Shown one piece after another: positions 1-58,330 of a DNA stretch of 64,000 nt; within the stretch, counting starts at the first letter, position 1, and every line of letters starts with the position of its first letter. A program made the position numbers and the translations under genes. This stretch comes from Uloborus diversus. Lineage: Eukaryota. The stretch lies in assembly GCF_026930045.1 (NCBI RefSeq), contig NC_072740.1, positions 29,492,384 through 29,556,383 of the forward strand, written 5' to 3'. The notes under the pieces were generated by a model. That model saw only the letters and a program-made list of their open reading frames with translations. It was not told the origin of the DNA and ran no database searches.

Positions 1-2340
1 CTCTCCCAACTGTGTTACCCACCTCCCTTACCATAGAGTCCCCCAAAATTACACCCTTAGTTTCCCAATCTAACTCCTCATTTGAAACTTCCCCCTGAAT
101 CTCTGGAACATTTATACCCTCTGCAACTGGCCTACACCCTAATGCTAACTGGGCTTCCAAAACTAGCATCTTAAGTCTTAAGTCTGAGAGTTCAGCACAT
201 TTAGTGCAAATATAATCCTCCTCAAAAACAGACTCATTTTCCTCCTTATACAGGCAGAACATATGACATAAATCACAAGAGATCCACCTGTCCCCCTTCC
301 CACTCTTTACCTCTTTCATAATGCATATAACACCCATTTCTACTCAGTGAATATGTTCCAAAAGGCAAAACAGAAAGATAAAAATGCAAAAAACACAGAA
401 TAAATACTAAAAACAGCAGTAAATAAACAGAGTTGCTACACCCAATAAAGCACACAAGATCAAAAACCAGGAGATCACCACATGTTAGGCTTAGCTCCAA
501 AAATGCAAAAACACTTCAAGAATACAATAACAGCAAAAATGAGCCCCCAAAACACAATAAAACTAAATTACATGATAAAGTGAAGTAAAAAAACCTAAAA
601 CTAGACAGTAATAATGAAAAATTATAGTAAAAAAACACTTATCAAATTAGCAGCAATAACACTCCCTGCATCACAGGCGCCCTCTAGTGGCCAAAAAAGT
701 GTAGTTATTATATAATAATAACTACATTACTTCTATTCTTTCACTATTACTTGTTATTTTTGCAACAAATATTATATTGTTTGAAAACTTAGTTCAAAAT
801 AATTTCAATTACTTTTTAGTTCTATCATAAATACACATATGTTTCTATGAGTAATTTTAATAGTTTCTTAAAATTCTTATGCTAAGTGGTTTCTGGAAGT
901 AAAGTATTTTTTTTCTTAATTTTCTATAATCTTTCCATTGTAGAAAAATTTAATGTACTGTTTTATAGGTTTTTCTTCCCCCCAAAAAATTGACTTGATA
1001 TGTTTTTTTTAAACCATTTTATTGAAAAAGTAGCATATTTTTAAAATATATCTTTTGTTCAACAACTTTACACAACTTAAAACGTTTAAAATACTGCATT
1101 TTATACAAACATACAATGGAAGAAAACTATTATCATTAGTAACGTAAATCAGGGAAATTTGGTGAACTTAATCAGGGAAATCAGGGAAAAGTCAGGGAAC
1201 TTTTTTTCACAGTTCCTGTTGCCACCCTGATATATATCCAATTTGTTTTAATTTAATAATAATCAATTTTTATTTTGAATGATTATTTTATTTTAAAATA
1301 CAAGAATTTTATTCCTTAATGGAAGGTAATGTTGTTGCATTTTCTTTAAATACTGTTTATGTAAATTACCATATTTCTTTTATGGCCTTTTATCCATTAC
1401 CTTTTATCAGGAGTGAAAGTTTTGCATCTTTTGATGGATTTTCGTCTTTTTAAAAATAATCAAAGCATACTAAGATGGAGCATGATAAAAAGTAATGAAT
1501 AATCAGTGAATGAGTTAGTCTAAGAAATTGAGATAATTTTTTGATTTTTAAAATTTGTATTCTATAATAATTGATCACAGTTAAGAGAAAATTGATACTC
1601 ATTACCAAATGATGAAACATAAATTCTTAAAATTATAACAAATCATTTCACTTTATTTCTTTCTTAAAAAATCATCGTAATTATTCAGTGTCTTTATACT
1701 AAAATAAATATATTAAAAAAAAGAAAAGAATGTTTATAAAAAGAAGAAAATATTAATAAAGTGCTGTCTTCAATCCTTTTACATACTTAAAAACTGTATT
1801 TAGGATACGCCCCCTTTTTATTTGAAAAATATTTGCCTTAATCATTTTTACAACTTGATCTTTAATCCATTACAGCAAATTTTCAGAAAAAAAAAAAACA
1901 ACCTTGGCTAGTCTTTACATGAATGATAACTAAGAAAAAAAAATACCCATTTGGAATCCATGTAGAACTATTTTTGAAATATTTATTAGAATAAAATGCA
2001 AAAAGGAATGATAATAAATAAACATATATGACACAAAAATATTTGTCTACATCTTGAATCTTTTCACTAAATTCAACACTAACTCATTCATTTTTTAATC
2101 AGCATTCATCCTGTATCTAGAAATGTATTTTACACTAATTTGTAGGGGAACCATTGTTTTTGTTTGCAAAAATTTTGATTTGTAACCATCCTTTAAAGAG
2201 AAATTAAGCTTTTAAACCTTGTTTCCACCATAGAGTATGCATTTTCTCTGATATCTTGACTGTACTGTTTTTTTTTTAAAATTTTTTATTAATGTATTCT
2301 AGTTCCTGTTTCTAATAGTATTACTTGTTTATTTTCTCAG

Positions 2341-2375
2341 CGAAATACAATAGAACTAAGAAGAAAAAAACGCAG
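2341..2375 (+). CDS. RO60: TROVE/Ro60-like gene, possible small exon (KYNRTKKKKTQ)
   Basis: attttctcag|CGAAATAC acceptor and CGCAG|GTAATG donor; phase-0 junction to the next exon gives KYNRTKKKKTQ|VLREKENL…, resembling Ro60 …TKYKQRNGWSHKDLLRL; very short, so weakly supported. Confidence 0.3.
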
Positions 2376-2455
2376 GTAATGCTCACTTTTTGGAAAATTA
2401 AATTTTTTAGGCTTACAAAGTTTTACTATCGTGCAATGTATAATATCTTCACTAG

Positions 2456-2598
2456 GTTTTGAGGGAAAAAGAGAATCTGACTGAAAATGAGGATGAACAA
2501 AAGATGGAACTTCCTAGGACATTTACATTAAAACAGCTAATACGTGTGCTACATATTAGTGCTCCTGCTGATAAAGTGATGTGTCTTCTTGGAAAGAA
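2456..2598 (+). CDS. RO60: TROVE/Ro60-like gene exon (VLREKENLTENEDEQKMELPRTFTLKQLIRVLHISAPADKVMCLLGK-)
   Basis: Acceptor cactag|GTTTTG; donor GGAAAGAA|GTAAGTAAG (GTAAGT at 2599-2604); open frame; similarity to Ro60 …[28 protein letters not shown]…. Confidence 0.6.
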
Positions 2599-3367
2599 GT
2601 AAGTAAGAATTGAAACTTTTTGAAATAACTTAGTTGTCATGTTACTTTTGGGCTGTAACATCCCAACATTTTAAAAAAGGCATTAGGTTGGTGTATTAGA
2701 GAAGTCAATATCTCCCACCTGGTAACGTTATTTCTGACATTTTCAGGTTGGGTTTAGAAAAAGGCCATCCAACATTTTGTATCCAATGACTGTTATTTTC
2801 ATGCTTCATTTGGAAAGTAAAATACATGTCTTTAAATGTTTTTTTCATGAAAACATGCATTTATGCAGGTTTGGGGAAAACTTGTTAAACCGCCACCCTC
2901 GACTTTCACCAACTTTCGGCACATTGCTAAGATTGGCGGTTTAGCGAAGTTTGTACTTAAAATTACATTTCCTACATTTTAGTAAAAAAATCATTTTTCT
3001 GGCTCAATTGGTTCGGGGTCTGTGTTGTGAAAATTACTAAAAACTGTTAAAAATCACATAAAACATAAAATAACTTTTTTAGGCAAGGATTTTTAGAAAT
3101 TAATTATAGCCTATGTTACTTCCTGATCATGTAGCTTTCTATGGTGAAAAAATGGTTAAATGGTTCAATACAAAAATAAAAACAAACAAAAAAACTCTTT
3201 CCTCTTTATAATAGTAGTATAGATGGTAGTTTTTCATTTATACTATCCAGTTTAACTGAAAATCATTTCTTGTTGCATCAAACTGTGCTTTTTTTTCTTC
3301 TTCAAATGCCTTGTTTATGTCTGCTTCATGTGAAGGTGATTTCAGGGGTTTTTTTTTTAAATTTTAG

Positions 3368-3525
3368 GTATCCTAGCTGTTATCAAGATTTCCAATCTTC
3401 TGGATTGCCAGGTAATTGGGATTCAAGTAAGGCTGGTCAGAGAATGAAGCTTCCGGTTCCTGAGACTTGGGAAACTCAAATTTCTGCTTATGGAAACAAC
3501 CCTGCTGTTTGGGAGTCATTAATAG
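3368..3525 (+). CDS. RO60: TROVE/Ro60-like gene exon (KYPSCYQDFQSSGLPGNWDSSKAGQRMKLPVPETWETQISAYGNNPAVWESLI)
   Basis: Acceptor tttttttaaattttag|GTATCC (AG 3366-3367) and donor AATAG|GTATTC (GT 3526-3527); phases are consistent with the flanking exons (2 in, 1 out); …AVWESLI aligns with Ro60 …EVWKALL…. Confidence 0.7.
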
Positions 3526-4723
3526 GTATTCTTCAGTTTAAGTTGAAGAATTAAATTTGATGTGTTTTAGGGAAACAATTATAGTGACTACAATTAAAAA
3601 CTAAAGCATAAATAAATAGCAAATAACAATAAGGAGCATGATTTCAATTTGGGATTGCTTTCAAAACCGAAACAGTCTGCATTTGAGTAAATAAGTCTTA
3701 AAGTGATCTCACTTTAACTGTTGATTTTCCATATTTGGATTTTGCTATTATAAAACCTGAGTTAAATTTTTGGTTTTTGGATTTGAATTTTGTGAAAAGT
3801 TAAATTCAGAACGAATGTGTACTTTCTGCAACTTATCATCAAGGTTTTGATTATTTCACATTATGCATCTGCTCTGCTTATGGCTTTCTTTCCCATCATC
3901 AGAATAATAGTTTTCTTCCATGTTCTCACACAATCTAGACCAAAACGCTTAATCATTTTCCAAATATGACTCATTTCCTTGTATTGAAGTTAAGATTTGG
4001 AGCTCTTCCACTTGCGTAATTTTGCTTGCATGTTTTTCTCAATATATGCATGGTGGATAATTTAAACAACTCATAATAACCATTGAAGCACATAAAACCA
4101 CATTTTATTTCCATACCATTCATCTCAAATTATTTGTCATTGTCAGCACTTTTTTACAATCTATATGTAAAGCGACATCACTTTTTAGTTTTTCAAGACT
4201 TTTTTCTTTTACCTTTTTATAAAATGTTGCCATACTTGTTTCCAAGATTTCAGAGCATATGTTTTTCTTTCTACTTATGGATTAATTTCGAAAAAAATAA
4301 TGGAAACTCAAAAAAGCTTTTTCTTTTTTTTTGTGCTGCAGTAATGTAGTTTGAATCATTTGCTTTAGGCCTATCTTCTGTCAGATTAAACCTTGTGCAC
4401 AAAATAAATAAATAAATATATAAATAAATAAATAAAAATAAGAAAAATACGTAAAAGAACTTGAATCATTCAAGCAATAGTAAAAAAATTTAACTGTCTT
4501 GCTGAATTTCTTCTATGTGAAAATTTATATGCTTGTATCTTTGATACTTAAGCTAATTGTTTTTAAATCTTGCAAGATGGTTTTGACAATGGGTTTTATG
4601 TAAATAAGGTTGCTTTTAATGATGCAAAATTTTTACCAATGATTTTTCTTTCACTGATTTTCTTTCTGTGTTACATTGCAAGAATGAAAAATCTAATCCA
4701 ACTTTTCATTTTACTTTTACTAG

Positions 4724-14750: not shown

Positions 14751-15073
14751 GTAAGTTGTAATGCTTTTAACTTTTCACTCCAGGGTCCCTGTACCTACCA
14801 CAATTTGTGGTTTAACCAGTTAGATGGAAAGCTGAAGACAGCTATGATTTTTTGATCCACACCATTAACCGAGCAATCCCTGGTCCAACACCCCCAGAGG
14901 TACCAGGATTTTGTGACCATGAGCATATTTAATGTCCCCCAGTCACCATTAATGAAGACAGTGGATCTCCGTCCGGCTAGGATAGAACCCGGAACTCTCC
15001 AATCACGAGTCCAATGCCCTCCAGTCACAAGTCCGATGCCATACCCATCAGGCCATCGTGGCCTTAAGTTGTA

Positions 15074-16754
15074 CAGTGCGGTGCAAAAGTTTCAGCACAA
15101 CCAAAATCTGTTGATAAAAAGAAAAGTACACTCCAAAAAGCTTTGAAATTTTTACTGTATTTAAACACTCAGCGTACAAATTCACGTTTCAAATTTCGAA
15201 ACAATTCATAGAAATTAAAATAAGATTTCATAAAAAAAATCAAAATTTTGCTGTCACAAAAGGTGAGTCACAAAAATGAAATATTTACATTTATTAAAGG
15301 ATAAATGTCTTTTAGTAGTCTATGGTGTCACTATTGTTCCTGATGAACTCGAATTTGCAATTTTAAATTGTTAGCACAAGACATTGGAATGTTTTGGGTG
15401 TAAGACTGTACCAGGCTTCCTCGATTGTTGATTTTAGCTCTTGTACAGAGCAATACTACATCCCATTCTCGTATACGTCACGTGAGAGAAGTTTCCAGAT
15501 GTTTTTTATGAGATTGAGATCTGTGGATTGAGTGCTGGCCAGTTCATTACACTAATATTTTGAGACACAAGTCATTCTTTTGCACTGTGGGAAGTGTATT
15601 GAATTGTTGTCTTGCTGGAAAATCCAATTAGAACCCAATAGGACTTCACGAAACGCCAACAAATGCTGGCTTAGAGTATTTTGATATGCTTCTTAAGTTT
15701 ATCTGCCCTTTAAAAAGCTAAGGGAAGTTCGTCCATTGAAGCAAAAGCGCCCCATACCACTAGCAAGCCACCACCTTGTTGCCTACTGAATATGCACTTT
15801 TGATCTTCCTTCAAGTTACGCCAATAGTGTGAGAATTCATCTGGACCATCTAAATTCCATTTTTTTTCATCTGAAAATATAGCACTTATCCATTTGACAC
15901 TATAATGCATGGGGTGTTTTTCCCACTGCAGTCTTGCTTGTTTATGACACTGTTTCAGAAAAGGTTTGTAAGCTAACCTTTTTTTTGATAAATCTTGATT
16001 CATTTATTTGTGTGCGTGTGGTATACGTGATATTTTTTTCAAAGTCAAGTTTTTATCTGATTAAGAGACAAATTTCCAGTTAGAGCCATTCTTTTAATTA
16101 TTCTATCCTCACGAAAGGTAGTTTTTCTCTCCTTCCTGAGCGATACACAGGATTGAATTGTTTTCCACGTTCCAGAATGTAATATATACCTCGTTTATAG
16201 CAATTTGTCATTTCTGAAATTTCCGTAAGGATTTAACTTCAGCTTTCAGCTTCCAGAGTTTCGAAATTTCTTTCAGACAATAACTGCAGAGACTTCGGCA
16301 TCCCGATAACACGTTAAACCATTGCTACACTTTATAATTTGTTGCAAAGAATGCACTGGTCCTTCACGCATCACGTTTCAAGAGATCTTTGCATTAAATC
16401 TGATTTGTGCATAAACTTTTGGGACAGCCAAAAAATGTGGTTTGTGCTTTCTGTGATTTTTTTTTATGGTTACATTTTTCAAAATTTCAGACACATATTT
16501 AAGATTTTACTAGTCATCAACAGTAGAAATTTGAAAGCATTCGGTTGAATAGTTTTTTTTTAAATTCAAAAATTTGCAATGTGCTTAAATGATGTGTGAT
16601 AGTACATTCCCAAACTACATCAAAACCATTTGAAAATCATGTCAAAAAGAGTGACTAATTTGTTTGTATGTTGGATGGATAGCTATTTTTAATGACCTCG
16701 GTTACACCGCACTTTTTCTTTTTTCCCCGAAAAGTGCAGTATAACGAGGGGTTA

Positions 16755-16757
<3 letters not shown>
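15074..16757 (-). mobile_element. Tc1-like DNA transposon (~1.68 kb) with a pseudogenised transposase, flanked by TA
   Basis: Left end TA|CAGTGCGGTGCAAAAGTTTCAGCAC (15072-); right end …AAAAGTGCAGTATAACGAGGGGTTACTG|TA (ends 16757); minus-strand ORF 15710..16003 (…KPFLKQCHKQARLQWEKHPMHYSVKWISAIFSDEKKWNLDGPDEFSHYWRNLKEDQKCIFSRQQGGGLLVVWGAF) is the Tc1 transposase region just upstream of the DDE core; further DDE-like text on the minus strand at 15300-15700 is interrupted by stops. Confidence 0.75.
15290..16650 (-). pseudogene. Tc1-family transposase pseudogene (stops and frameshifts)
   Basis: Only fragmentary ORFs with transposase similarity; no intact ~340-aa frame. Confidence 0.6.

Positions 16758-16831
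<74 letters not shown>
16758..16831. repeat. (TA)n microsatellite, about 36 units, exactly between two Tc1-like termini
   Basis: Perfect TA run between …GGGGTTACTG and CAGTGCTGG…. Confidence 0.95.
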
Positions 16832-16834
<3 letters not shown>

Positions 16835-18333
16835 TGCTGGTAAAAAAAATTGCATCACCCTTGGGTTTTCACAACCATGGGATTATGTGAGAAGTTTTGG
16901 TCGACCGGTTAACAATAAATGTATGTGAAATTCTGCAAAACTCAGGGATCGCGCTAAGGATTTCGAATCGTTCGCCAGTAAATTCCCCAATTTTTAAAGT
17001 GTTAGCCAAATTTCAAAGGTTTTAGTCAAAGACTAACTTAAACTCATTTTAAATGTATTTTTGTCTGCAGAAATATTTAATCAGTAAGTGAAGTATAACT
17101 TAGTTTTTGACAATTTTTTGAGGATAAGGGCAGGGGTATATCCAGGAATTTTTGTCCGTTTTTAGGAATTCGGTGAGAAAAAAAAATGCTAATTTCAGTA
17201 GTTTTTCCAAATCATATGTAATTTTTCAAAGGAAAAAATGGCTAAAAACAACTTCATGTGATATTTATCATTCTTTAATAAATTTTAGATTAGAAATAAA
17301 AGCTTTAAACAAAGTAAAGACTGCATTCCCATCTTACTCCAATGTTTCAGACATTGAACACAATGAAACAAACGTGCCATTCAACAAGCCATCCGCCATC
17401 ACTTTCTACTCAGTAGCCACGCTGCGCACTCGATATCCAATCAGCGAGAGGCGCAAGTATAGTGACGCAAAGAGGTGAGAGGCAAATGTCATCCTTCCTC
17501 CGATCCGATGAACGGTAACGCTCCGCTCCAATGCTAACGCGCGTGCGCGCACCTCAATCTGCTCGGAGTGTTCCGAGGATAAAACAAATTTCAGTGATTT
17601 CTAGTCTGGGAGTTTTGTGAAAGGTTCTTTTTTAGGGGTCGGAATTTTGTGACGGGTCCGCTTTTTGGAGTCCAAATTTTGTGAACGGACTTAATTTTTA
17701 TCTAGATTGACTTCTGAAGGGAGATTTTTTTTCCTCTGTGTATATTTTAGAGAATTTTCTGTTCGCCAATAAATTCGCCAAATTCGAATTTTGTTCGCTG
17801 ATTTTATCGTATTTGGCGCATTGGCGAATGCTTAACGCGGTCCCTGAAAACTTATGAAATAAACATTTAACAGCAGGAATCCGATAATTGTTTACTTAGA
17901 AAGGGGCTCTTTCCGGGCCAAGGTAAACTGCTGACCCCATGCTCATTTTTCCATTTCTGAACCTGCGTGTGAGTTAAGAGAAAAAAAATTACTTAACCCC
18001 ACATCAATTTAAGTCTAATGGCAAGATAAAGGTTTTTAAATTGTTACTTACCAGTTTTGCCCTATGGCACGAAGCAGAATCATCCTGGAAGATGACGTTT
18101 GGAACTGAAGTAAAGTGATCATGGATAGTAGGAAGCAATTTCTCCTCCAAAATGCCAACATACCCCTGAATGTTTACTGTTCCTTGCACAAAGTGAAGGC
18201 TACTAACTCCTTAATCAGAAATACATCCCCAAATCATCTGGGATACGGAACGCTTGACTGTGTGTTGAATGCAGTCGGGATGATACTCCTCTCCTTTGTG
18301 GTGCGGGTGATGCAATTTTTTTTACCACCACTG
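16832..18333 (-). mobile_element. second Tc1-like element (~1.5 kb, internally degenerate) with near-perfect 30-bp TIRs
   Basis: Left TIR CAGTGCTGGTAAAAAAAATTGCATCACCC (16832-16860) vs right GGGTGATGCAATTTTTTTTACCACCACTG (18305-18333), each flanked by TA; minus-strand ORF 18004..18189 (…VPNVIFQDDSASCHRAKLVSNNL…) is a Tc1 DDE fragment (compare the canonical IFQQDN…H motif). Confidence 0.8.
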
Positions 18334-18349
18334 TATATATATATACACA

Positions 18350-19585
18350 CAGGGTGTTTCTGAACTCTTGGGCAAAACTTTAAGGGGGGATAGTACATAT
18401 GAGGACAAACAATATAATAGCAAAAGTAAGGGTCCCAAACGTCTTCTGAAGGAGATAGGCACCATTTAAGTGTAGGGTCAAAAACTTAAATTGTATGCCT
18501 GAAGGAAGCCTTTCAGACCTCAGAAGTATTCAGCAGAGTAGAAGATGAAAAAAGCACAGGACAAACAAAGTCTTAAGGGAAAAAAATCCTTTTGTTTTAA
18601 CTTATTAGATGAGCTAATAAGACAATGAATTTGACTTACAATGAATCCAGTTCAACAGGAACATTAAAAATATATTGTCATTCTAATGACGAACAACATC
18701 TCATCAAAATGGCTAACAACTTTTTTTGAATTAACTTAGAGAAAATGTATTTTCACAAAATAGAACATTCAATATGATTACGCAATTTTCCTTTGAACTG
18801 GACTAAACGACACTAAAATGCAGACATCATACACAAAAAACATTGAGGGAGAGAGAGCCCTCAAACCTGCAACATTATATAGACGGGAAAACACATGGTG
18901 GAACAACCAACATTTGAAATTTTAATCCCTTATGGAAAACAACAAGCTCTGTTGCCACACACTAAAACTTCAGAAAACATCTCAGAGTTATCACATGCAG
19001 GAACTAACCAAAACCCAATCCAGTTCAGATGAGTGAATCCCCCAACGACGTCACTACCGATTCAACGTTGTTTGTATGTTTATGTAGGAGCAATTTGTCT
19101 GAACCCGATAACCTGATCTGCATGGGGCAAAAACGAATTTTAGATGAAATAACAGTGGGTTATTTTATTATTTTTTTATCTAAAAGAAAATTTGAGTAAA
19201 ATGTTAATACAAATGATCATAAAAAATGGAAAAATTGGTCGATTTGGCTGCGGTTTTCACTAAAATTATTCTTTTTACCAGTATTTTTTTGAAAATAAAT
19301 TTTGAAGATGTAGTTTAAAAAATGCTGATAGAGGGCGCTTTAGACTTTGGAGTAACGAACAACTGTTTTTTACCGCTATTTTTGAATCTCATTTTAGCGA
19401 AAACCGAAAACCAATGAACCCATTTTTCCGTTTTTTATGATCATTTGAAGTTTTTTACTGTAAACTCTAATGCCGCCTATCTCCTTTGGAAAACGTTTGG
19501 GACCCTTATTTTTGTCATTATATTGTTTGTCCAGGTGTGTACTATCACGACTTAAAGTTTTGCCCAAGAGTTCAGAAACACCCTG
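18350..19585. mobile_element. non-autonomous DNA transposon with ~115-bp terminal inverted repeats (hAT-like CAGGGTG terminus), ~1.24 kb, no coding capacity
   Basis: 18350 CAGGGTGTTTCTGAACTCTTGGGCAAAACTTTAAG…GGGTCCCAAACGTCTTCTGAAGGAGATAGGC is the reverse complement of 19477-19585 GCCTATCTCCTTTGGAAAACGTTTGGGACCC…CTTAAAGTTTTGCCCAAGAGTTCAGAAACACCCTG; flanking 8-mers tatataca / tatacata match 6 of 8 (a weak candidate 8-bp TSD). Confidence 0.7.
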
Positions 19586-19742
19586 TATACATAAATTTTT
19601 TTATAAAAAGAAAATTTTTTGCTACTTTTCTAACTAATGTAACAAACATAAGTAAATGTCACATTGTAAATAATATCAAACCACTCGCAACAAAATGTTT
19701 AACTTATATTTTGAACTTGTTTTTTCTTACTCCTTAGTGCAG

Positions 19743-21928: not shown

Positions 21929-22237
21929 TCAAATAAATCTTTTTACATAAATACTTAATATTACAACTGTAAAAGTTAGGTAATTATATGGAATAAAACC
22001 TTGAGCTCCATTGGAGAAACAATCTAGATCAGTTTTGAATGCATCAATAAAAGACTTGTTCATATTAACACATTTTGCTTCTCTTAGATCATCTATTGAA
22101 AACTGTGCACAATTAATGTCACTACAGCTGTGTTGATAGTCATATTCACGTATCCACTCCCATATCCATGCCAGTTGGCAATCACAGTGTAGTTGGTTTC
22201 CAGATAGTTCAAGTTGCTGCAGTTGACTTTGTGCTCC
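21929..22237 (-). CDS. chp: chaoptin-like protein, terminal coding exon: last LRR, LRRCT and hydrophobic GPI-signal-like tail, stop TGA (21929-21931)
   Basis: Acceptor ttattctatttttccag|GGAGCACAA (AG = complement of 22238-22239); translation GAQSQLQQLELSGNQLHCDCQLAWIWEWIREYDYQHSCSDINCAQFSIDDLREAKCVNMNKSFIDAFKTDLDCFSNGAQGFIPYNYLTFTVVILSIYVKRFI*; CDC..W..W is the LRRCT signature and matches the chaoptin C-terminus (…LNCDCDLGWVEFW…); small residues (SNGA) followed by a hydrophobic tail are consistent with GPI anchoring, as in Drosophila chaoptin. Confidence 0.7.
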   Translation of the reverse strand, partial: GAQSQLQQLELSGNQLHCDCQLAWIWEWIREYDYQHSCSDINCAQFSIDDLREAKCVNMNKSFIDAFKTDLDCFSNGAQGFIPYNYLTFTVVILSIYVKRFI

Positions 22238-22939
22238 CTGGAAAAATAGAATAATGTCATTTCTAAATTTAGTACTTTCATATTAATAAATGCTATAGTT
22301 ATTATTTCTAATTCATCAGAATAGTACTCTTTCTATTTTTTTTATATTAAACTGCAGCATTGTAATAATATCAATTGAGGCATTACGAACAACAACAACA
22401 AAAAAAATTATTAAATTTTGTTTTAAAGCTTTAGCTATTCTTCTTGAATTAAATTTTAAAACCAATCATTATTTTATAGAATTGAATTCCTTTTCAAATT
22501 TTCCTTTTTGGGATACATTTTTTGGGATGCATGCAACTCCTAAAAACATCCAGACACTGAGTATTAGGGTGGGTTACTGTCCTGTGGTAAAAAACAAAGA
22601 TTACGATTTTCGTTGGGCAGGGCAAGAAAATGGTGCCAAATAACATTTTAAGGTTATATATAAAATTTCATTCAATAAGGAGATCATTTTGTGCCTCTGG
22701 TTTGAGTTTGAAAAACCTGTATTTAAGGAAAAGTAATCTATCTTTATTAAAAAACTGATAAACAAAATTACAAATATGTATAACAGCTTAAAATTTTCCA
22801 AGTATTAATCATTTATTTACTACAATATGATAATCATTAATTTAGAAAATTTAAAATATTCATCTTTAAATAGCTTGAAAGTCCTTCTTACAATCAAGTT
22901 TTGGCATAAGTTTCTGGGACTGCACAATGTAGTTGAAAC

Positions 22940-23165
22940 TTCTGTCAGTTCTAACTGCCCTTTCACAGGGGTGCCCAATCCCCTGCATAAGGACGATGGT
23001 GCACTCCCTCAAATGCTGGGGAGTATCCCTGTCCCCCTGCCAGAAAATAAGATCAAAAACCCTGTCAAATTCAAATCAACCCACCTAAAAATTTTAAGGC
23101 TGCAGTATGCGCCATGAACCCCCCCCCCCTCTGGTGGGCTCCCCTGCCTTTCAACAGCCTGTTTA
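22940..23165. repeat. interspersed repeat with a C11 tract, in the chaoptin intron
   Basis: ggggtgcccaatcccctgcataaggacgatggtgcactccctc…ccatgaaccccccccccctctggtgggctcccctgcc resembles the reverse complement of 26215-26385. Confidence 0.5.
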
Positions 23166-24557
23166 TGGCATGGCAGGCATAGTAAATGCAGTTCTTTTCT
23201 GCCTGAAACAAACTGTTGAATATGTTTGTCAGAGACTGATTTCAGAATTGATGATCAGACACATTTTTCCAGTCAATGAGATTGATGTTAGATTCTGCAT
23301 CAGACTTAACAACAAGAGTTTCAAAAAGTCAGAGTCCATTGTGAGTGGTCAAATGTAGTTGTTAGTATTTTTGTATTTGCAAGATGAAATGTCAAATAGC
23401 AGTGCACTAGCTTGGAAAAATGGTTTTAATTATTTCCTTAGGTGTTTTCGGTCAGGATTTCAAACGATAGTTGCATTTCAAGAGGTAGATTTTTAGCATC
23501 TCTCACTCATTTATGTTGCACGGTAGGCAGGAAGCGTTTGACCAAATTCACACATCTCGGCCAATTCTAACAACTAAAATGGCAGGTGTGAATTTAAACT
23601 AGATGCAAATTGAAAGTTTCATTACTTGTTTCTGTAAGCGATGTAGCATTTATTATTATTGCAATCTTACATAGAACAAATCCTATTTGGGTAAGGAAAT
23701 CCAAATTGCAAACTCAATCCGGAGGCAAAAAGACTGATCAGAATAGAATAAAATTTCACAGAATGCTCTATTTTACACCTTTAAGTATGCTTAATTTTGT
23801 ACTACAAATTGAATTTGTGGAATGTTGATATAAAATTTTTAAATAATTTAATTCCATTTGAAAAATGGATGGGGACATGCCAAAAGTGTGACTTTCTGGT
23901 TAATTTAAAAAATTTTGTGGAAAAACTACATGAGTTGTTGTTTTAATAAGAGTAGAATAACAACAGGTAAGTTATTTCTAACTATTAAAAAATAAAAACA
24001 TTTTCTGAGTTAACAATTTTTGTGTTAGGCTACTGGGACATAATATTGTTAAGACTTTGGAGAATCACCAATATGTCAAAAAACATTTTAACATGAAATG
24101 ATTTTTACTCAATTTTTATTGTAACACAATGATACAACCAAATTGCATGAAAACTGTTACACAAGTTTAATTTTTTAATGGTGATTATGAATCTAATGAA
24201 AAAAAAAAAAAAAGATTGCCATTAGAAATTTGAAAGTTGATTGCATATCTTTATCTCAAGACTATCCCTTAGAAAATTTTTATAATTTAAATTTTATATT
24301 GCATAGTATTTCCGATAGATTGACTAATTTTATGTGTTTTTAGCTGGGGCAAAGCTAACTTGGCAGTGTACATACTGTTGTTATCAGGTTTTTTGTACCT
24401 TTCACAATGTTGATAAGTTGACTCTACCTGAAATATAGTATAGATAGTATTGAAATGAGAAAAAGTATTTAATTTTTTTCTCCATACCACAGGTTAATTG
24501 TTTGTATTTATTCATATTTCTTTTCACATTAATTTTCTAAAGTAAACAGCAAGTTAC

Positions 24558-25349
24558 CTTTTCAAATGTAGTAGGTATTCTTTCAACTGTCTGTAATTTG
24601 TTGTTTTTAAAAGATGCTGTGAAGTTCTTTACTTCATTCATTGTGTAAAACATGTTTCGCGAGAGAGTTAGTAGGTTGGTATTTCTAATATCCAACTTTA
24701 AGTTTGGTGTCTGTAAATTAGTTAAAGCTGATTCATCTATGTGTTTCAAATTTCCACCTTCCAGTACAACAGATTTTACTGATTTAGGAATACTCCCATC
24801 AAGTCCTTGAAACTTTTTGTCTTCAATGTGCAAGTGTATTTCTCTGAGCCCATTATTTTTTTGCAACAACTGACTTACATCAATGTTTTTTAATTTGGAA
24901 TACAAATCCATTTCTATTCTTCTTAAAGCAGTTAAGCGTTGAAAAGCAGCTTTCTGAATGTCCTGCACTTTCAGATTTTTAATTATTAGCTCCTGTAAAC
25001 GTTCCATGTTTCGAAAGCTATTTTCCTGTATTGCTTGAATGGGATTCGATTGCAGATAGAGTGACCTCAAATTATGCAAATGGGACCATACATTGTTATG
25101 TATATTTTGCAGTAAATTGTTTGAAAAATCTAACACTTGCAACTTCTTAAGGTGTTCAAAAGCTTCTGACTGAATGGTTTGAATATTGTTTAAACTTAGA
25201 TTAAGAAATAAAATATTGTTAGGCTCCAAGACTGGTACACTTATCAGGCTTGTGTTTGCAAAGTTCAGAGATTCCAAGCTATTAGGCAGGCTATTTATAA
25301 TCCATTGTGGTACCTCTTCAATTATGTTATGCGAAATGTCCAAAGAAAT
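24558..25349 (-). CDS. chp: chaoptin-like protein, coding exon 2 (264 codons of LRRs)
   Basis: Polypyrimidine tract + CAG acceptor on the minus strand (tctttttactttacag|ATTTCTTTGGAC, AG = complement of 25350-25351) in phase 0 with exon 1; LRR-rich ORF (…SNNLLQNIHNNVWSHLHNLRSLYLQSNPIQAI…LDIRNTNLLTLSRNMF…); the terminal TCCLL* of the ORF is read-through, and the real end is AAG|GTAACT (donor = complement of 24552-24557), which joins in phase 0 to the LRRCT exon. Confidence 0.8.
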
Positions 25350-26214
25350 CTGTAAAGTAAAAAGAGTTACATGATGAGTATGAAATTATATTTTAGACAA
25401 TTAATGTGAAACGAACTAATTTTTATTATTTTTTAAATTGAAATGTTTTTATAAAACAGATAAATTTAATTAAAAAAATTGCTCTTTTTGCTAAATTTGA
25501 AGGGCTGACTTTTTTTCAGATAACACATGAATTTAAAAACTTTATTAAATTGATAGAAGATTCTCCTTCCAAAAGTGTCTTTTTAAATAATATCTTCATG
25601 GAGAGTATAGTACTTTAAGTATTTTAAGCTTGAAATACGTTTTATTTTGATTCTTTGGATCTGCAAACTCTAACCAACTTTTAAAAAATCACAGTTTTAA
25701 GTCTGTTATTTTAAGTTCACTACAGTGAAAATTTTTAATTTTACCTATAAGTCAGTGTTTTTTTTTTTTTTTTTTTTTTTGAGGCAGGAGGATGAATTTT
25801 TTTTAATCATTGTTTCCACAACTGAAAGTGCTCAAAATAGCAGCAAAATAATTTCGTATTTATCATTCAAAACTTTTAAAAAATGAATTCAATATTTCAC
25901 TCATAAGTTGCTAAGCTTTAATGAAAACTAACTTGGGGCAAGTTGAAGCCGTCTTAAAGAATGTTAGAATTTCGCAACACTATTTTTTTTTAAATTATGG
26001 TGTTTACATTTCTATTTGTCTTATGTTTTAAAGGTGCCTGAAGATTTTATTATTTTTTTTTATTTACCTCAACTTGAACGTTTTGTGCTACTTATTTATT
26101 TATTGAAATTGAATGCCATGTTAATCAAATTATTAGCATAATTACTTTGAAGAAAATGATACTATTTCCATGAAAAAATAACGATTTTATGTGCATTTTT
26201 AGTTTTCTCGGGTG

Positions 26215-26385
26215 CCCAATAAGGATAGGTCATGGTGCAGACTGCCGTATTCAACGTTTTAGAGGGTGGGTGTTTTCTGGGGTATTTTTCTTTTCTGGGG
26301 GGGGGGGGCTGACTCTGGAGGGGGGTGCACCATCAGTGCCCTTAGGGTCAGGGGCACCCATGGTTTTCTATTGTTCTTAGTTGCA
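26215..26385. repeat. interspersed repeat with a G12 tract, in the chaoptin intron (inverted relative to 22940-23165)
   Basis: …ttttctggggggggggggctgactctggaggggggtgcaccatcagtgcccttagggtcaggggcaccc; reverse-complement similarity to the 22960 copy. Confidence 0.5.
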
Positions 26386-26471
26386 TAAACCTAAACATCA
26401 GTAGTTCAATTTCTGGCTTACTTTTGTGTACATTTGCAAATTATATATTTGAGGAAAATAAGCATACTTAC

Positions 26472-29063
26472 AAGTTTTGGTAGTTTGAATTTCCTTGCTT
26501 CACCAGGTAGAAAGATTCTGTTTTTTGCTATGCTTAAATGTCTTAAATGTTGTAAGCTTTCTATATGACTGAAGTTAAAAGACTTAATTTTATTTCCTGT
26601 CAATTCTAAGGACTGTAATGTTTCTTTAATTTCAAGTAGTGATTCTGTAGGAAATTCAGTTATACTATTATAAGATAGGTCTAACTGTTCTAAAACTGTA
26701 GTTGAAAATAATGTTCTTGGCAAGCTTTCTATTGTGTTGTGAGATGCAAGGAAGATTCTTAATTTATTTTGCTCTTCAAATAAATTACTTGGTAGTTTTT
26801 TAATATAATTTTGAGACAAGTCCAATATTTGAAGACTTCTTAGTCCTCTGAATTCGCTTTCTTCGATGATATCTATTAAATTGTTCCGAAAAACCAAGGT
26901 TTGTAAATGCATCATCTCTGCTACAGCAGAATTCGTGAGATTTGGAATTTGATTATTACTGAAGTCTAGTACATTGATGGAAAGTCTAATTGGGTCAAAA
27001 TAATTATTATCTACATAAGATATATTATTGCTGTTGAAGTTAATGCTTTTAATATTACTTGAAGTGTGACTGGAAGTGTAATATGCAGTTAAATTTTGAA
27101 TTTCATTATGATCAACATCAATTCTCAGTGTTGATAGTCTTCCTACTTGATCAAAAGCCTCTAAGTTGAAGGCAATTAATTTATTATAAGCTACATTTAT
27201 AAACTGAATGTTTGGTAGATTTTGAAATGCTTCATTTTCAATTTCTTCTATGAGGTTTCCTTCTAAGTTAATTGAAATTAATGAATCCAAGTTTAGAAAT
27301 GAAGATTTCTCTATTAATTTTATTAGATTATCATTTAATTGTAAGTGTACTAAATTTTGCAAATCTCTAAATGTGTTCGATTTTAATGAGCTAATTTTAT
27401 TGAAAGCAATTTTTAACTGCAATAAGTTTGGATTATTGATTCCATTAACAAAATTTATTTCTAAATTCTTGAGGTCATTGTGGTCCAAGTTCACAGTTTT
27501 AAGATTCTGAAAAATAGCGAATGATGCTTGGGGCAAATATTGCAAATTATTGTTGCTTATATCTAAGTCTTGTAGTTTTAACAAGTGGCTAAATTTTCTG
27601 TACGGAAAGGTAGACATTTGTAAAGCATTGTGTAGAAATATCTTCTCTAAAGAATGGCCTACATCCTTGAATGTTGTATTTCCAATGTTTGAAATTTTAT
27701 TATAAGATAAATCAAGATGCTTCAGTCCACCAAGTTGTTGAAATGAACCACTCTCAATACTTTCAATCGAGCTTTGAACAATGTACAATTTTTCCATTGA
27801 AGGTCCAATATTTAAAAATTGATGATTTATCTTAGATTTTTGTTTATTAAAAAACAACTCTCTTAGGTTGGGAAGATTTTGCATACTTTCAGAGGAAATG
27901 CCATTCATCTTTGGGCCTCTAATATCTAAATATTTCAGTGTTGTTCCAAAATGTTCGACATCATTAGGTTGAATTGTACCTATTTTATTTCCTGCTAGAG
28001 ATAATTTGACTAGCTTTTTTAAAGCAAGGCTGGGAAACTCAAGTAAATTGTTATAGCTTAAGTCTAAGGTTTGCAATGTATGTGAGACACTATAGAAGGC
28101 ATCATCTGAAATAAATGATATTGAACAATGAGGCATGTATAATTCAGTTATATTTGTTGTCAGAAATGTGTTATTTACTATACTTATTGGATTTCCTTTT
28201 AGTAAAAGACGATTAATATTATTGAAATTCTTAAAACTTTCTGGTAGCAATTCTGTAATAAGGTTGTACTCTAGGTGAATTTCTTCTAAATTGATTTTAT
28301 TCTTTACTTCTTTTCCTTCAGATATTGAAAAAAGTAGATTTTCATTTAGGTTGAGTATTCTCAAATTTCTTAAGTTGGTTAACATGTTAAAAGGTATTTC
28401 ATGAAGCTGATTTCCCATCAGGTTTATGCGTCGTAAGTTGTACAGTTTATTCTGTAATGTGAAATCTTCAATTGAAGTAATAGCATTGTATGCAAGATTC
28501 AGGTCTTCTAGAACTGCCATATTTTTAAAAACATCATTTTGTACATTTGTAATTGAATTTTCAGATAAGTCAAGCACTTTCAATGTGTTGCTGATGCTTT
28601 GAAAATCATCACTTTGAAATGAACTTATGTGATTTGAAGCTAAGTTCAAGTTGTATAGCTTCTCTAATTTTTGTATAGCTTCTTTAGGTACTCGAACTAG
28701 CTCGTTGGTACTGAGATCTAGAATTGATAGTGTTTTTTCAAGTCCTGCTAAAGCATTTGATGGCAGATCACTTAAGAGGTTATTATTAATTTGTAGTTTC
28801 CATAATCCAGTTCCATTCAAACTATTATCTTCTAAAAATCTTAATTTGTTGTTTTTCAAACTCATAATGTAAATAGCAGAATTGTTGATTTGACGGGGAA
28901 CTGTCATAAATGGTATGTTATGGCAACACACTGATCCTAAATCTGGGCCTCCACTTGAACAAGTACATAGTGGATTGAATAAGCAAGGTCTGTGTTGTTC
29001 CTTGTATCTTGATTCGACAATGGCAAGTATAAAAAATAAGCATAATATTTCTTGAAGTCTCAT
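26472..29063 (-). CDS. chp: chaoptin-like LRR cell-adhesion protein, coding exon 1 (ATG at 29063; signal peptide, LRRNT, ~33 LRRs; 864 codons)
   Basis: Continuous 881-aa minus-strand ORF; N-terminus MRLQEILCLFFILAIVES is a signal peptide followed by an LRRNT Cys cluster (CLFNPLCTCS...VCCHNIPF); repeated LxxLxLxxNxI(xxI) units throughout; collinear with Drosophila chaoptin as I recall it (e.g. LEEIHLEYNLITELLPESFKNFNNINRLLLKGNPI vs LDNLHLEYNHIEVLPPNSFKYF...GNPI); the ORF tail after codon CTT (26472-26474) is intron read-through because a canonical GTAAGT donor (minus strand; plus 26466-26471) begins exactly at a codon boundary. Confidence 0.85.
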
Positions 29064-30749
29064 CTGGAAAAAACAAAAAAGAAAGAAATGTTTAGCATTA
29101 GAGAATTCTGATACTAGTTTTTGAGTTTAGGGTGGTGGCAAGGGGGATTAAGGGTTACATCCCAGGTTCCTTGGTTTTAATCCACATTACCAACACTAGT
29201 ATACTATCTTTTATAAGTGTAACGACTCTTATGACCCCGCCCCCCATAAGGTAAATTCTAGCTGTGCAAGTATTTAAGTTTGCGAATCAGTAACAAGGCT
29301 TGACATGTAGCTGTATGTATATGACCTGGAGCCTGAGGGATTGCTAGCACAGGTAAAGGTGTTGGTCATGACCTGTCCTCTCTTAACACGACTAAACATA
29401 AAAATGCATTTTGGGAGCTTCAATTTCGAGAAATTACTGAGGGAGAGCCCTTGACCCCCTGGTGGCTGGATATTATACTTTTAACTCTCACTTCCAATGA
29501 GTATGCTCATATTTCAATAATGCCCCCCCCCCCAAAACCATAAACAGGATCTACTTTAGGGAGGGAGGTTTCATAACAATCTTTTCATGTGTATATACTT
29601 GTATACTAGACTAGGAAACATTTCGTGTTTCAAGCTACAGACCAACGGTTGACCCCAAAAACCCTTCTCTTGTTTCTCTTCTGCTCATCACTGGTTCACT
29701 AGTTTTCTACGCATCGACCAGTACAGTTAGCTCACATCCTTCACTCTTTGCAAAAAAAAAATGATATTGTTTTCAGAAAGAAAAAAAAAATCACTGTATT
29801 TTACTTTAAAATGTTAACACCAAGTGTGAGTGTTAAACTTTATAAATATGAATTAAATATTTATATTCAGAATGAACATCCTTTTAATTGTGTATTTGAG
29901 TGTTAAGGTTTTGCATGGAATTGCTTGTACCATTTAGAATAAAAATCTTCTTTTTCATATGTAATGGCGATTTATACTTTTCAATGGGTGTTAAAGACTG
30001 GTCATATGATTTTTGACCCTGAGCTTAACCTGAATTCGCTCATATTTTAGAATTCTAAACTTTTCCCACTGCTAAATTGCAATTCCAAAACACATGTATA
30101 GTGTAATACAATTTAATTTTAAGATGTAATGAACAAAAATGTCACCCTCTTAAAACATTAATGTTATTTAGATTATATTTTAAAAGTTTCTAATATATTT
30201 TATTCTAGTTAATCAAATGGTTAATCAGGGGCATTTAAAATTGATTTTAGCAATAGCTATCATCGATTAACATGCACTTAAACTCGTGTGTTAATACTTT
30301 CCTTATGTTATTATATCATCCATTTATTTGAAACGAAATTTAATTGTCGAAATTTTTTTTTTTGGCATGTATTCAAATGAAGAACAAAACATTTCCTAAC
30401 AGACTAATTTAAATTTTAAATCCCTCTTTTTATTGTAACACAGAAACCATAACCTAATTTCTTATAAGCAGTTGTATAAATTTGTTTATAGGCAATTAAA
30501 TTTATGTTCTCAGTTATTCACTAAAATAAATTGACATGTGGCCATACTTATCAGAATCTGCCTGGGGGAGGGCAAGCACGGATCACGTGCTGAAGTTAAA
30601 ATTTTAGTACAACTTTTAAATTTTGAGTAACTATTATTAAATTTTAAGTAAGATAGAGATTGTTTATGGAATTTTATAAAAAGTGATGAAATAATAGACT
30701 AGTGCATTCTAATTGCAATGTTTATTTTTTAAACTGTCATGTGTTCACC

Positions 30750-31226: not shown

Positions 31227-32587
31227 CACTCCTGTTTGTAAAAATTGCAACACCACGAAGGACTTGCGCGAGTGAGCTGAAAATTGCAGGAAATGCAAAG
31301 TAGGGCATGATATGCAAATGACTAGAATTGCAGACCAGTAGCGCAATAGTAATAGACGGCTGTAGCGAGGTGTGTATGATTATCGGTGGTTATATGCAAG
31401 AGTAAACGTTAACTGAATCGTTACTATGCCTCTTCGACGAAAGAAAGCGAAATTTGAGCAAATTTCGGAGTTTGAACTGGCAGAATCGTCGGCCTTCGTG
31501 AAGCTGGACTGTCTTATCGTGCAGTAGCTGCTCGTGTGCAGTGTAAAAGCAGCACAATCATGCGTGTTTGGAAGCAGTGAACGGACGAGGGTCGGACAGC
31601 TTGGAAATCCGGGAGTGGACCCCGAAATGTGACGTCAGTTCGCGATGACAGACACCTGGTGCGTATGGCGCTGACGGACCGCACAGCTTTTTTCTAGGCA
31701 ATTGGCAGCACAGTGGTCAACAGCTACAGGTGTTTCATTGTGTGCTTTATCAATTAGGAGACGTCTGCTGCAGCTTGGACTGCGCGCAAGGATTCCTTTA
31801 TACAAGATTCCTCTCACTCAAAATCATCGCCGCTTGCGGCTACAATGGGCCAATGTGCATAGGAGCTGACGTGCTGATTGGCAGCAGGTCGTCTTTTCTG
31901 ACGAATCCCGTTTCAATTTGTGGCACTATGATAGCCGAATTCGTGTCAGGCTACCGGTGAACGGCACATTATCGAACGCCACAGTGGACGAACACCCGGA
32001 GTAATGGTCTGGGGTGCCTAGCATATCATGGACGATCACAATTGCTACGAATTGTGAGCAATTTGAACAGCACCCGATACATAAACGAAGTTTAACAGCC
32101 TCAAGCTATTTCCTTTCCTGCAAGGATTGCCAGGGGCTGTATTCCAGCAGGATAATGCCCGTCCACATGTCGCCAGGACTGTCAAATCCTACCTTGATTT
32201 GCAGCAGGTACAGCTTCTTCCTTGGCCTGCATATTTCCTGGATATGTCACCGATTGAACATGTGTGCGATTTCGTTGGGCGGCGTCCCGCTCGTGATCCT
32301 CGTCCTGTTGCTTCGACAGACGAACTTTGGTTGCGCATACAAACAATATAGAATACTCTTCCGCAGGCAGATATTCGAACTTTGTTTCACTTCATGCCGA
32401 GTCGTGTAGCAGCTGTTATTGCGGCGCGTGGTGGCCACACAAAATACTAATTTCTATCTCTTTTTATCGTTTGTTTGGTTTGAAAATGTAATCATTTATT
32501 TGTACCATTACCACTCAACTGTGCATTAAACTTCATTGAACTATGATGCTTCCTTCATGGTGTTGCAATTTTCACAAACAGGACTGT
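31227..32587 (+). mobile_element. Tc1-family transposon (1361 bp) inserted at TA inside a satellite unit; transposase pseudogene
   Basis: TIRs CACTCCTGTTTGTAAAAATTGCAACACC (31227-) and GGTGTTGCAATTTTCACAAACAGGACTGTG (-32587), each with a flanking TA; internal frames match the widespread arthropod Tc1-like transposase (SRQLAAQWSTATGV, SIRRRLLQLGLRARIPLYKIPLTQNHRRLRLQWA, FQQDNARPHVARTV, LPWPAYFLDMSPIEHVCDFVGRRPARDPRPVASTDELWLRIQTIWNTLPQADI) but with several stops and frameshifts. Confidence 0.85.
31427..32447 (+). pseudogene. Tc1-like transposase pseudogene
   Basis: Starts MPLRRKKAKFEQISEFE…; ends …AARGGHTKY*; reading requires at least 3 frame changes; in-frame stops after LDCLIVQ and DPEM. 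Confidence 0.8.
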
Positions 32588-32880
32588 GTATACGCAAGCG
32601 CGTAAGGTGTATATATTTGCTGCTGTGCGGATACATTCGTTGCGAGCACGCGCATCTCGCAACAATCATTTAAGTTCTCCTTCTTTACTTCTAATTTGTT
32701 CAAAATTAATGTTGCTAAGGTAAAACGTAGTAATCATAGCTAGATAATATAGAAGGACGCAGACACGCAGATACATTCGCTGCTGTAAGAAAATATTTGG
32801 TGCTGTGCGGATACATTCATTGCGGACATGCGCATCTCGCCATAATCGCGAGTAATGTTCTAGTTTCCCACCTGTCCTTT
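32588..32880. repeat. ~160-bp satellite-like tandem array (right part, about 2 units)
   Basis: tatacgcaagcgcgtaaggtg…gctgctgtgcggatacattcgttgcgagcacgcgcatctcgcaacaatcatttaagttc… and a second unit from about 32740; the first unit is completed across the Tc1 insertion when joined to 31226. Confidence 0.75.
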
Positions 32881-57129: not shown

Positions 57130-58330
57130 TTGTTAAAAAAAAAATTCATAGTTTCGTTCCAAATAATTCTTTTAAGGTTTCTTTTGATATTAACTCTTTA
57201 TTTACGAACGTTCCCGTCGAGGGTTCATTGTTATGCGTTCGTAAAAGACCATCTGAATTTCATTTCACCAATACGGAAATTGAGGATTTAGTTTTCCTTA
57301 CCCGTACCTGTCTTAAGCAAGGTTCTTTTGTTTTTAATGGGAAATTTTATATTATGTTAGATGGTCTGGCTATGGGAAACCCACTCAGCCCCATTCTTAG
57401 TGATATTTACATGCATTATTTTGAGGTTAAGCTGTTCCAAAAACTGCAGTTTCAATTTTATGTTCGGTATGTTGATGATTGTTTTGTTCTAATGAACCAG
57501 AATCAGTTTGAGAGTGATGAGGTTTTATCTATTTTAAAATCCATTGATCCTCATATTCAATTTTCTTGTGAGAAAGAACGGAATAATTGAATTTCGTTTC
57601 TTGATGTACTTGTTTCTCGTACTGAAATTGGTTTTGAAACTACTGTTTATCGCAAACCTTTTGCTGTTTCTTTACCTCCTCATAAGACTATCGTCTCATC
57701 CTCCAAATCAAAAATATTCTGCTTTCAATTCTTTTGTTTATCGCGCAATCAATATTTGTCCTTCATCGGAACTTCTTCAAGGGGAACTTAATTATCAAAA
57801 AGCTGTGGCAATTGATAGAGACTATCCGCCAACTTTGATTGATTTCATTTATAAAAAAAATTCAAATAAATCCCAAACTAATGTTCTTAACCGAACATTC
57901 ATCAGAAAGAATTTGGTTGTTTTGCCATTCTTTCCATCTATAAGCTATCAGGTTGCTAAGATTCTAAAACGTTTCCAATTCCAGGTGGTGTTCTCTGCTA
58001 TTAATAAATTTTCATTCTCTTCTCTTAAAGATCATATTCACCCTCTTAATTGTTGCGGAATTTATGGAATTAATTGTAGTTGTAAACTTGCGTATATTGA
58101 TTAGACTCGGCGTGCTTTAAAAATTCGTTGAAAGAGCATCAAAATTATGTGAAAAAACAACAATTAAGTAAGTCTAGTATTGCTCAACATTATTGAGATT
58201 CGAATCACTCTTTTGATCTTAACTCTTATCAGATTATCCAAAAATGCCCCAATTCATCAGATCTTGACTTTTGGGAATCTTTTCATATTTTAAGGAACAG
58301 TTTTAACTTAGTTAATGATCTTAAAGCAGT
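57130..58330 (+). mobile_element. Penelope-like retroelement (PLE) fragment: reverse transcriptase + GIY-YIG endonuclease, 5'-truncated and pseudogenised
   Basis: RT motifs are read from the plus strand: SFDINSLFTNVPVE (motif A region), FYIMLDGLAMGNPLSPILSDIYMHYFE (motif B'), YVRYVDDCFVL (motif C, YVDD); downstream CGIYGINCSCKLAYID*TRRALKIRLKEHQNYVKKQQLSKSSIAQH is the GIY-…-YIG endonuclease signature with the YIG codon corrupted to a stop; further stops at 57590 and 58104. Confidence 0.75.

Follow-up and report, generated by a model that had tools for sequence, protein, structure and literature searches.

Transposases of the Tc1/mariner type cut at TA dinucleotides and favor deformable, alternating AT DNA (PMC8934666). 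Sleeping Beauty prefers the sequence ATATATAT centered on the target TA, and variant Sleeping Beauty transposases show a 24- to 43-fold enrichment within simple repeats rich in TA (PMC8934666). In plants, transposons have been found that reside in (TA)n and whose neighboring copies are separated by pure (TA)n, and several microsatellite-targeting transposons have been described there, i.e., Micron, MuTAnT, MiM (miniature elements inserted in microsatellites) and Ac-mMITE (PMC8449440; PMC8227079). The latter elements are Mutator-like, and most of their copies reside in (TA)n.

Here, we describe a (TA)n tract that is split by a Tc1-like element, designated B, in the genome of the spider Uloborus diversus. 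The window, i.e., the whole stretch of DNA that was analyzed, comprises 64,000 nucleotides and is AT-rich, with a GC content of ~33%. In its target choice, B resembles the Tc1/mariner elements discussed above: both ends carry the TA duplication, the termini have the sequence CAGTG...CACTG, and the surrounding DNA is alternating TA, the target preference described in published work (PMC8934666). In contrast to Sleeping Beauty, B is a natural, decayed spider element, and the one other family copy found with both flanks does not lie in a TA run. With Micron, MuTAnT, MiM and Ac-mMITE, B shares the presence of (TA)n on both flanks and the clustering of neighboring elements around one tract, but it is Tc1-like and not Mutator-like. 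Also, whereas most copies of Micron, MuTAnT and MiM are flanked by (TA)n, such a pattern is not seen in the B family, in which the comparison is weak with n = 1. We consider the ordinary integration of the non-autonomous, Tc1-like element B into a pre-existing TA tract the best explanation of this locus, with a probability of roughly 75%. The features at the center of the locus are the following.

16758-16831: perfect (TA)37 of 74 bp, left part of the tract split by B (TRF: period 2, 37 copies, 100% matches)
16832-18333, minus strand: element B, Tc1-like and non-autonomous, with terminal inverted repeats (TIRs) of 29 nt
16943-17846, no strand assigned: element N, unclassified, 904 bp, nested in B, with ends CAGGGATCGCG.../...CGCGGTCCCTG
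17898-18300, minus strand: remnant of the transposase of B, middle third only, with the second-D motif FQDDSASCH
18334-18345: (TA)6, right part of the tract split by B, directly after the right terminus of B
18350-19585, no strand assigned: element C, 1236 bp, non-coding, with TIRs of ~155 nt starting with CAGGGTG

The whole-window count of TA runs revealed only two with six or more units, and these are the two flanks of B; the third-longest run in the window is (TA)5 at position 57100. Thus, B lies inside one TA tract. The repeats adjoin B at either end and are in phase, and when B is taken out together with one TA, they join to form a continuous (TA)42 with CACA after it. A preliminary description of the locus had reported a perfect (TA)n run of ~74 bp, which is now delimited as (TA)37. 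It had also offered, as a fallback option, that B inserted into a TA run, and this option fits the presence of the TA repeat on both flanks. The tract folds as a perfect hairpin, for which Rfam returned weak miRNA-like matches only, far below the gathering scores.

The TIRs of B, at 16832-16860 and 18305-18333, have the sequence CAGTGSTGGTAAAAAAAATTGCATCACC, start with CAGTG and match at 28 of 29 positions, which was obtained in none of the shuffles. Near-perfect TIRs of 30 bp had been claimed earlier; their near-perfection is confirmed, but the length found is 29 nt. Approximately 135 codons are left of the transposase, and the right TIR is fused directly to this remnant, which contains an intron-like segment of 89 nt (17953-18041). 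The TIRs and the remaining transposase fragment agree with the earlier classification of B as a non-autonomous, TA-bounded, Tc1-like element. A Pfam search with the fragment gave no significant match, and the relationship was found by homology searches. At the amino-acid level, the remnant is 72-84% identical to P0121-P0129. At the nucleotide level, the transposase stretch is 85-91% identical to contigs L001-L003 and L006-L011. Seven of these are short ENA contigs, six of them from one Tara Oceans assembly, and two are metagenome contigs of JGI. A more distant relative, with 67% nucleotide identity, is present on Logan contig L005. The first-D, second-D and E motifs of a DD34E-type transposase are found in L005 and in one of the JGI contigs, L010, and thus in the family, whereas B itself keeps the second-D region only. 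Seven short ENA contigs and L005 showed no match to the TIR of B and are, hence, uninformative on flanks. Exact scans for this TIR in metagenome, bacterial and archaeal genome, and viral collections found none.

Both ends of a B-family copy are available on the JGI contigs L010 and L011, which are 99.95% identical and represent one sequence with 32% GC. This copy, at positions 2262-3888 of L010, is a foldback with arms of roughly 700 bp that are 93% alike. The left TIR of B and the adjacent subterminal sequence (16829-16941) are 88% identical to positions 2261-2372 of L010, and the next 51 bp of L010 match positions 17847-17897 of the window at 98%. Thus, L010 is continuous with B on both sides of N and reads straight across the insertion point (TGCAAAACGTATGAAATAAAC), which identifies N as a nested insertion and L010 as the corresponding empty site. 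N is bordered by a target-site duplication (TSD) of 6 bp, AAAACT, at 16937-16942 and 17847-17852, and no match to N was found in any of the fetched loci. A further 366 bp of L010, which encode the C-terminal part of the transposase there, are missing from B between positions 17897 and 17898.

B is devoid of the N-terminal and the C-terminal third of the transposase, and both TIRs and the subterminal sequence are kept. Judged by its sequence, B is a doubly deleted, interrupted, non-autonomous element. In the retention of both TIRs and the subterminal sequence, it is similar to internally deleted non-autonomous derivatives of Tc1-like elements and to foldback copies; compared with such derivatives, it shows nothing unusual besides the additional nested insertion of 904 bp. 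It had been argued that B must be young because its TIRs have outlasted its interior. This reasoning is invalid, as the interior was deleted and interrupted and not merely mutated.

The copy on L010 also defines where the B family ends. When the ends of B were aligned with both ends of this copy, homology began exactly at TA-CA(G/A)TG (hyphens mark the element boundaries here and below). The termini of the L010 copy read TA-CAATGCTGG...CCAGCACTG-TA, and its flanks, GAGCA-TA and TA-ATTTTC, consist of unrelated sequence in which one TA, and no TA run, adjoins either end. Because this copy stops at the same boundaries and is flanked by plain TAs, (TA)n does not belong to element B. The alignments establish the anatomy and the boundaries of the elements, and they place (TA)n outside the B family. 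The preliminary description had named genome-wide copies with (TA)n as a conserved internal part of one composite element as the observation that would speak against a junction. The boundaries of the L010 copy exclude (TA)n, and on this copy the composite-element reading was rejected.

A unit composed of A (an element further to the left; see below) or the spacer, the tract and B thus seems very improbable, and so does the related idea that the length of the tract is an assembly artifact. In favor of these ideas, one may cite the difficulty of assembling long TA runs and the perfect hairpin formed by the tract. However, the L010 copy has the same termini as B without a TA run on either side, the relative of A on Logan contig L004 shows no link to B sequences, and an artifact would affect how long the tract is, yet it would not put TA repeats on both sides of B. 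Besides B, the copy on L010 (which equals L011) is the only one of the family found with both flanks, and because these are single TAs, the TSD of the B family does not seem to grow routinely into a repeat (n = 1). Likewise, this one flanked copy, which is weak evidence, gives no indication that the B family would prefer microsatellites. Plain TA dinucleotides also flank another element in the window.

31227-32588: element E, a Tc1/mariner element whose TIR resembles that of B, with plain TA on both sides

To the left of the tract, the following features were recognized.

15072-15073, no strand assigned: TA TSD to the left of element A, where the sequence reads ...AAGTTG-TA-CAGTGCGG
15074-16589, minus strand: alignable part of element A, a decayed Tc3-like (DD34E) Tc1/mariner transposon
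16590-16698: 109 bp, unalignable, either an insertion in the right inverted repeat of A or the start of flanking DNA
16699-16714: motif CGGTTACACCGCACTT, which resembles the right terminus of A (12/16 match to CTTTTGCACCGCACTG)
16715-16757, no strand assigned: spacer of 43 bp, ending with ...GGGGTTACTG at the TA tract

As read from the sequence, A indeed opens with TA-CAGTGCGG at 15072/15074, as described earlier. Its transposase, encoded on the minus strand, is heavily decayed, with stops and frameshifts. A search with the stitched protein yielded 398 homologues; several bear the name Tc3 transposase, and the highest identity is 47%. A Pfam scan of the stitched protein gave nothing significant; the family was found by homology searches. 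Over 1278 bp, L004 and A share 77.7% identity. In this relative, the inner repeat motif is present on each side, and 34 residues separate the second D and the E, i.e., the DD34E spacing; in A, the position of the E is occupied by a K. The inverted repeats of A are ~215 bp long, and each contains an outer and an inner repeat motif (outer motif at 15080-15098; inner motif at 15253-15272, and at 16404-16430 on the right side). In these inverted repeats with two direct repeat motifs each, and in its Tc3-like DD34E transposase, A resembles Tc3 and Sleeping Beauty. It differs from these in its strong decay and in the disruption of its right terminus.

Apart from its outermost 16 nt, the left inverted repeat of A (15074-15290) can be aligned to positions 16390-16604 in reverse complement, and the homology is continuous only to 16589. 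The geometry of the inverted repeats predicts a right end at 16602. The terminal 16-mer expected for A, CTTTTGCACCGCACTG, is absent there (3/16 matches at the predicted position), and the 12/16 match is found at 16699-16714 instead. A match of the latter quality was attained by 12 of 5000 shuffles. The true right end of A is, therefore, probably located near 16714, after an insert of 109 bp, and 16602 is the earliest possible end. These candidate ends are followed by TT and TA, respectively. The 109 bp at 16590-16698 did not match L004 or any other locus.

These results affect the earlier picture of two transposons inserted back to back. A had been thought to run to 16757, but its alignment stops at 16589 and its terminus-like motif lies at 16699-16714. 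The sequence GGGGTTACTG, which had been taken as its end, does not recur elsewhere in the window or among the fetched loci. The part before the tract that cannot be aligned to A comprises 43 bp (16715-16757), or 153 bp (16605-16757) in case A stops at ~16602; no match to this 153-bp sequence was found in any of the fetched loci. With at least 43 bp of non-A sequence between A and the tract, B does not lie back to back with A, and the tract is not located where two TSDs abut. Nor is there any sign that A created a TA run, as had been considered: its clear left flank is a single TA (TA-CAGTG), and no TA run is present at either candidate right end.

The preliminary description had suggested the birth of the microsatellite from TSDs. 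According to this proposal, the TAs duplicated upon insertion seeded the repeat, which then grew by slippage and would be younger than the transposons. The site without B would, under a model with a single TA in the empty site, read ...GGGGTTACTG-TA-CACATAAATTT. The tract is indeed bounded exactly by element-like termini, i.e., ...TTACTG-TA and TA-CAGTG, and the perfect purity of its 74-bp arm would be expected for a young, expanding tract. However, the repeat is found on both sides of B, so two single TAs would each have had to expand independently. Slippage requires a proto-repeat of several units, a requirement that further argues against growth from a single TA. Moreover, both flanks of E and of the L010 copy have remained single TAs, a single TA precedes A on the left, a TA run is missing at its two candidate right ends, and A does not even adjoin the tract. 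Thus, with TA repeats on both sides of B and plain TA at L010, at E and at the left end of A, the birth of the microsatellite from TSDs is disfavored, and we consider it quite unlikely. The key clue against it is the presence of the repeat on both flanks of one element.

The spacer forms, together with 16696-16716, an imperfect palindrome with arms at 16696-16716 and 16730-16749. Its DNA fold has an energy of -11.2 kcal/mol (z = -3.6), and none of 200 shuffles folded equally well. The palindrome is, thus, significant and could indicate that the tract was hit more than once. In that case, it would have received two TA-targeting insertions, i.e., B and a palindromic piece of ~66 bp (16692-16757), the latter being a tiny miniature element of the Tc1/mariner type, and pure (TA)n would have been left between them. 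The 66-bp piece is flanked by TA at 16690-16691 and 16758-16759, its outer end, CAGTAACC, lies beside TA, and it has a CAGT end in the reverse complement. There is also a precedent in plants, where adjacent elements are split by pure (TA)n (PMC8449440). However, the piece is present as a single copy in the window and in all fetched loci, and the pairing between its left end (ATGACC...) and its right end is poor. Moreover, its left arm matches the expected terminus of A at 12/16 positions, which suggests a rearranged end of A and not a separate element. We therefore regard a second insertion of this kind as doubtful, both with respect to the repeated targeting of the tract and to the identity of the 66-bp piece as a miniature element. 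If true, the locus would be a spider Tc1/mariner counterpart of the plant microsatellite-targeting arrays, and the tract would have captured at least two such insertions and then expanded between them, with transposon ends aiding the growth of the repeat.

Integration of B into an existing tract would require a simple course of events. The locus would first have held a (TA)n microsatellite. B, presumably mobilized in trans by a Tc1-type transposase, would have integrated at one TA of this tract, which would have been duplicated, so that (TA)37 came to lie to the left of B and (TA)6 to its right. As alternating TA DNA supplies many target dinucleotides, no special mechanism would be required. 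A would represent an older and unrelated Tc3-like insertion, 43-153 bp to the left of the tract, whilst C would derive from a separate insertion at the tract's right edge, and N would have inserted into B later. We infer this order of events and, with it, that the tract is older than B. Perhaps, the left arm was lengthened by replication slippage after the insertion of B; such growth is suggested by the unequal arms (37 versus 6 units) and by the perfect purity of the longer one.

C begins four bases past (TA)6, at the right edge of the tract. Its TIRs constitute an inverted match of 155 bp at 82.6%, in which the 29-nt termini are exact, and it is bordered by a TSD of 8 bp, TATACACA/TATACATA, at 18342-18349 and 19586-19593, with 7/8 matches. 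These properties fit a hAT-like non-autonomous miniature element, the superfamily being assigned by the length of the TSD alone; a transposase-encoding partner of C was not found. The only match of C in the fetched loci, 67 bp at 70% on L010/L011 (E = 0.004), was taken as chance. C, N and the (TA)6 to the right of B had been overlooked in the preliminary description.

The locus is real but ordinary, and the view that two transposons seeded the repeat is unsupported. It represents a clean single-locus case of a Tc1-like element within a (TA)n tract, with little import beyond annotation. For the annotation of spider genomes, it provides the boundaries of five elements, and it links one non-autonomous Tc1-like family to copies in metagenome assemblies.

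The region around the TA tract is dense in transposons. ARAGORN detected no tRNA genes. The window also carries the following gene.

29066-26463, 25349-24558 and 22240-21932, minus strand: exons of a chaoptin gene

The best protein match of the chaoptin exon is a chaoptin-like protein of Stegodyphus dumicola, with 66% identity. Counted from the stop codon of the chaoptin gene, the TA tract and the transposon cluster lie 2.3-6.9 kb downstream.

Besides the TA tract and the transposons A and B, the window holds several other features, listed here in order of position.

Further features of the window, with strand where assigned
~14850-15065, minus strand: putative tRNA-derived SINE head, left of element A
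16692-16757: imperfect palindrome of 66 bp, with TA at either side
16943-17846: element N, unclassified, 904 bp, inside element B, with a 6-bp target-site duplication
17953-18041, minus strand: intron-like segment (GTAAGT...CAG), 89 nt in this copy
18350-19585: element C, non-coding transposon of 1236 bp, with TIRs and an 8-bp target-site duplication
21932-29066, minus strand: chaoptin gene, three coding exons
31227-32588, plus strand: element E, a third Tc1-like element, with TIR and plain TA flanks
57228-58104, plus strand: reverse-transcriptase fragment (Pfam RVT_1, E = 1e-6)

The transposase of the B family appears to contain an intron immediately after the region of the second catalytic D, judging by the sequences of the window copy and of the contigs L001, L002, L005, L006, and L010. 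In L005, a more distant relative, an intron-like gap is found at the identical position, starting with GCAAGT. Sequences of this family occur in contigs labelled as metagenomic (marine or other) with 85-91% nucleotide identity to the spider locus, intron included. These contigs comprise L001-L003 and L006-L009 from ENA, six of the seven derived from a single Tara Oceans assembly, and the JGI contigs Ga0181466_1000090 and Ga0068630_1000039 (L010/L011). Two possible sources are arthropod DNA in the sampled material and a horizontal transfer of the family. The B-family copy in L010 (2262-3888) is a foldback, in which two arms (2262-3006 and 3180-3888), ~93% alike, surround a single-copy centre; the same inverted junction, located inside the transposase fragment, is present in several short contigs (L003, L007, and L009).

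Element N (CAGGGATCGCG.../...CGCGGTCCCTG) is bracketed by the duplication AAAACT (16937-16942 and 17847-17852). Since the related copy in L010 is continuous across the insertion point, it serves as an empty site for N. A 108-aa ORF within N was searched against Pfam without a match.

Element C was inserted 4 bp away from the TA tract. Its TIRs of ~155 nt (82.6% identity) start with CAGGGTG, and, from the length of its target-site duplication (TATACACA/TATACATA) alone, it looks hAT-like. The preliminary description did not include this element. On the other side of the tract, the left arm of the palindrome matches the expected right terminus of element A at 12 of 16 positions; the palindrome could represent an A terminus that was rearranged, a very small miniature element, or a sequence left by DNA repair. 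Element E, the TIR of which (CAC(AG)TCCTGTTTGTAAAAATTGCAACACC) is similar to that of B, has plain TA flanks and was taken as a control.

To the left of A, the sequence looks like a tRNA-derived SINE head (GGCCTGATGGGTATGGCATCGGACTTG...GGGTTCTATCC), an impression from its bases only; it includes a 22-bp tandem duplication (14997-15040), and ARAGORN called no tRNA in ~14850-15065. The transposon cluster lies downstream of the stop codon of the chaoptin gene, which, compared exon by exon with spider chaoptins, shows 50-66% identity. The RVT_1 match scored slightly below the gathering score. Just downstream, the fragment is overlapped by an ORF (57544-58104) with a motif that appears to resemble a GIY-YIG endonuclease, a likeness that would suggest a Penelope-like retroelement.
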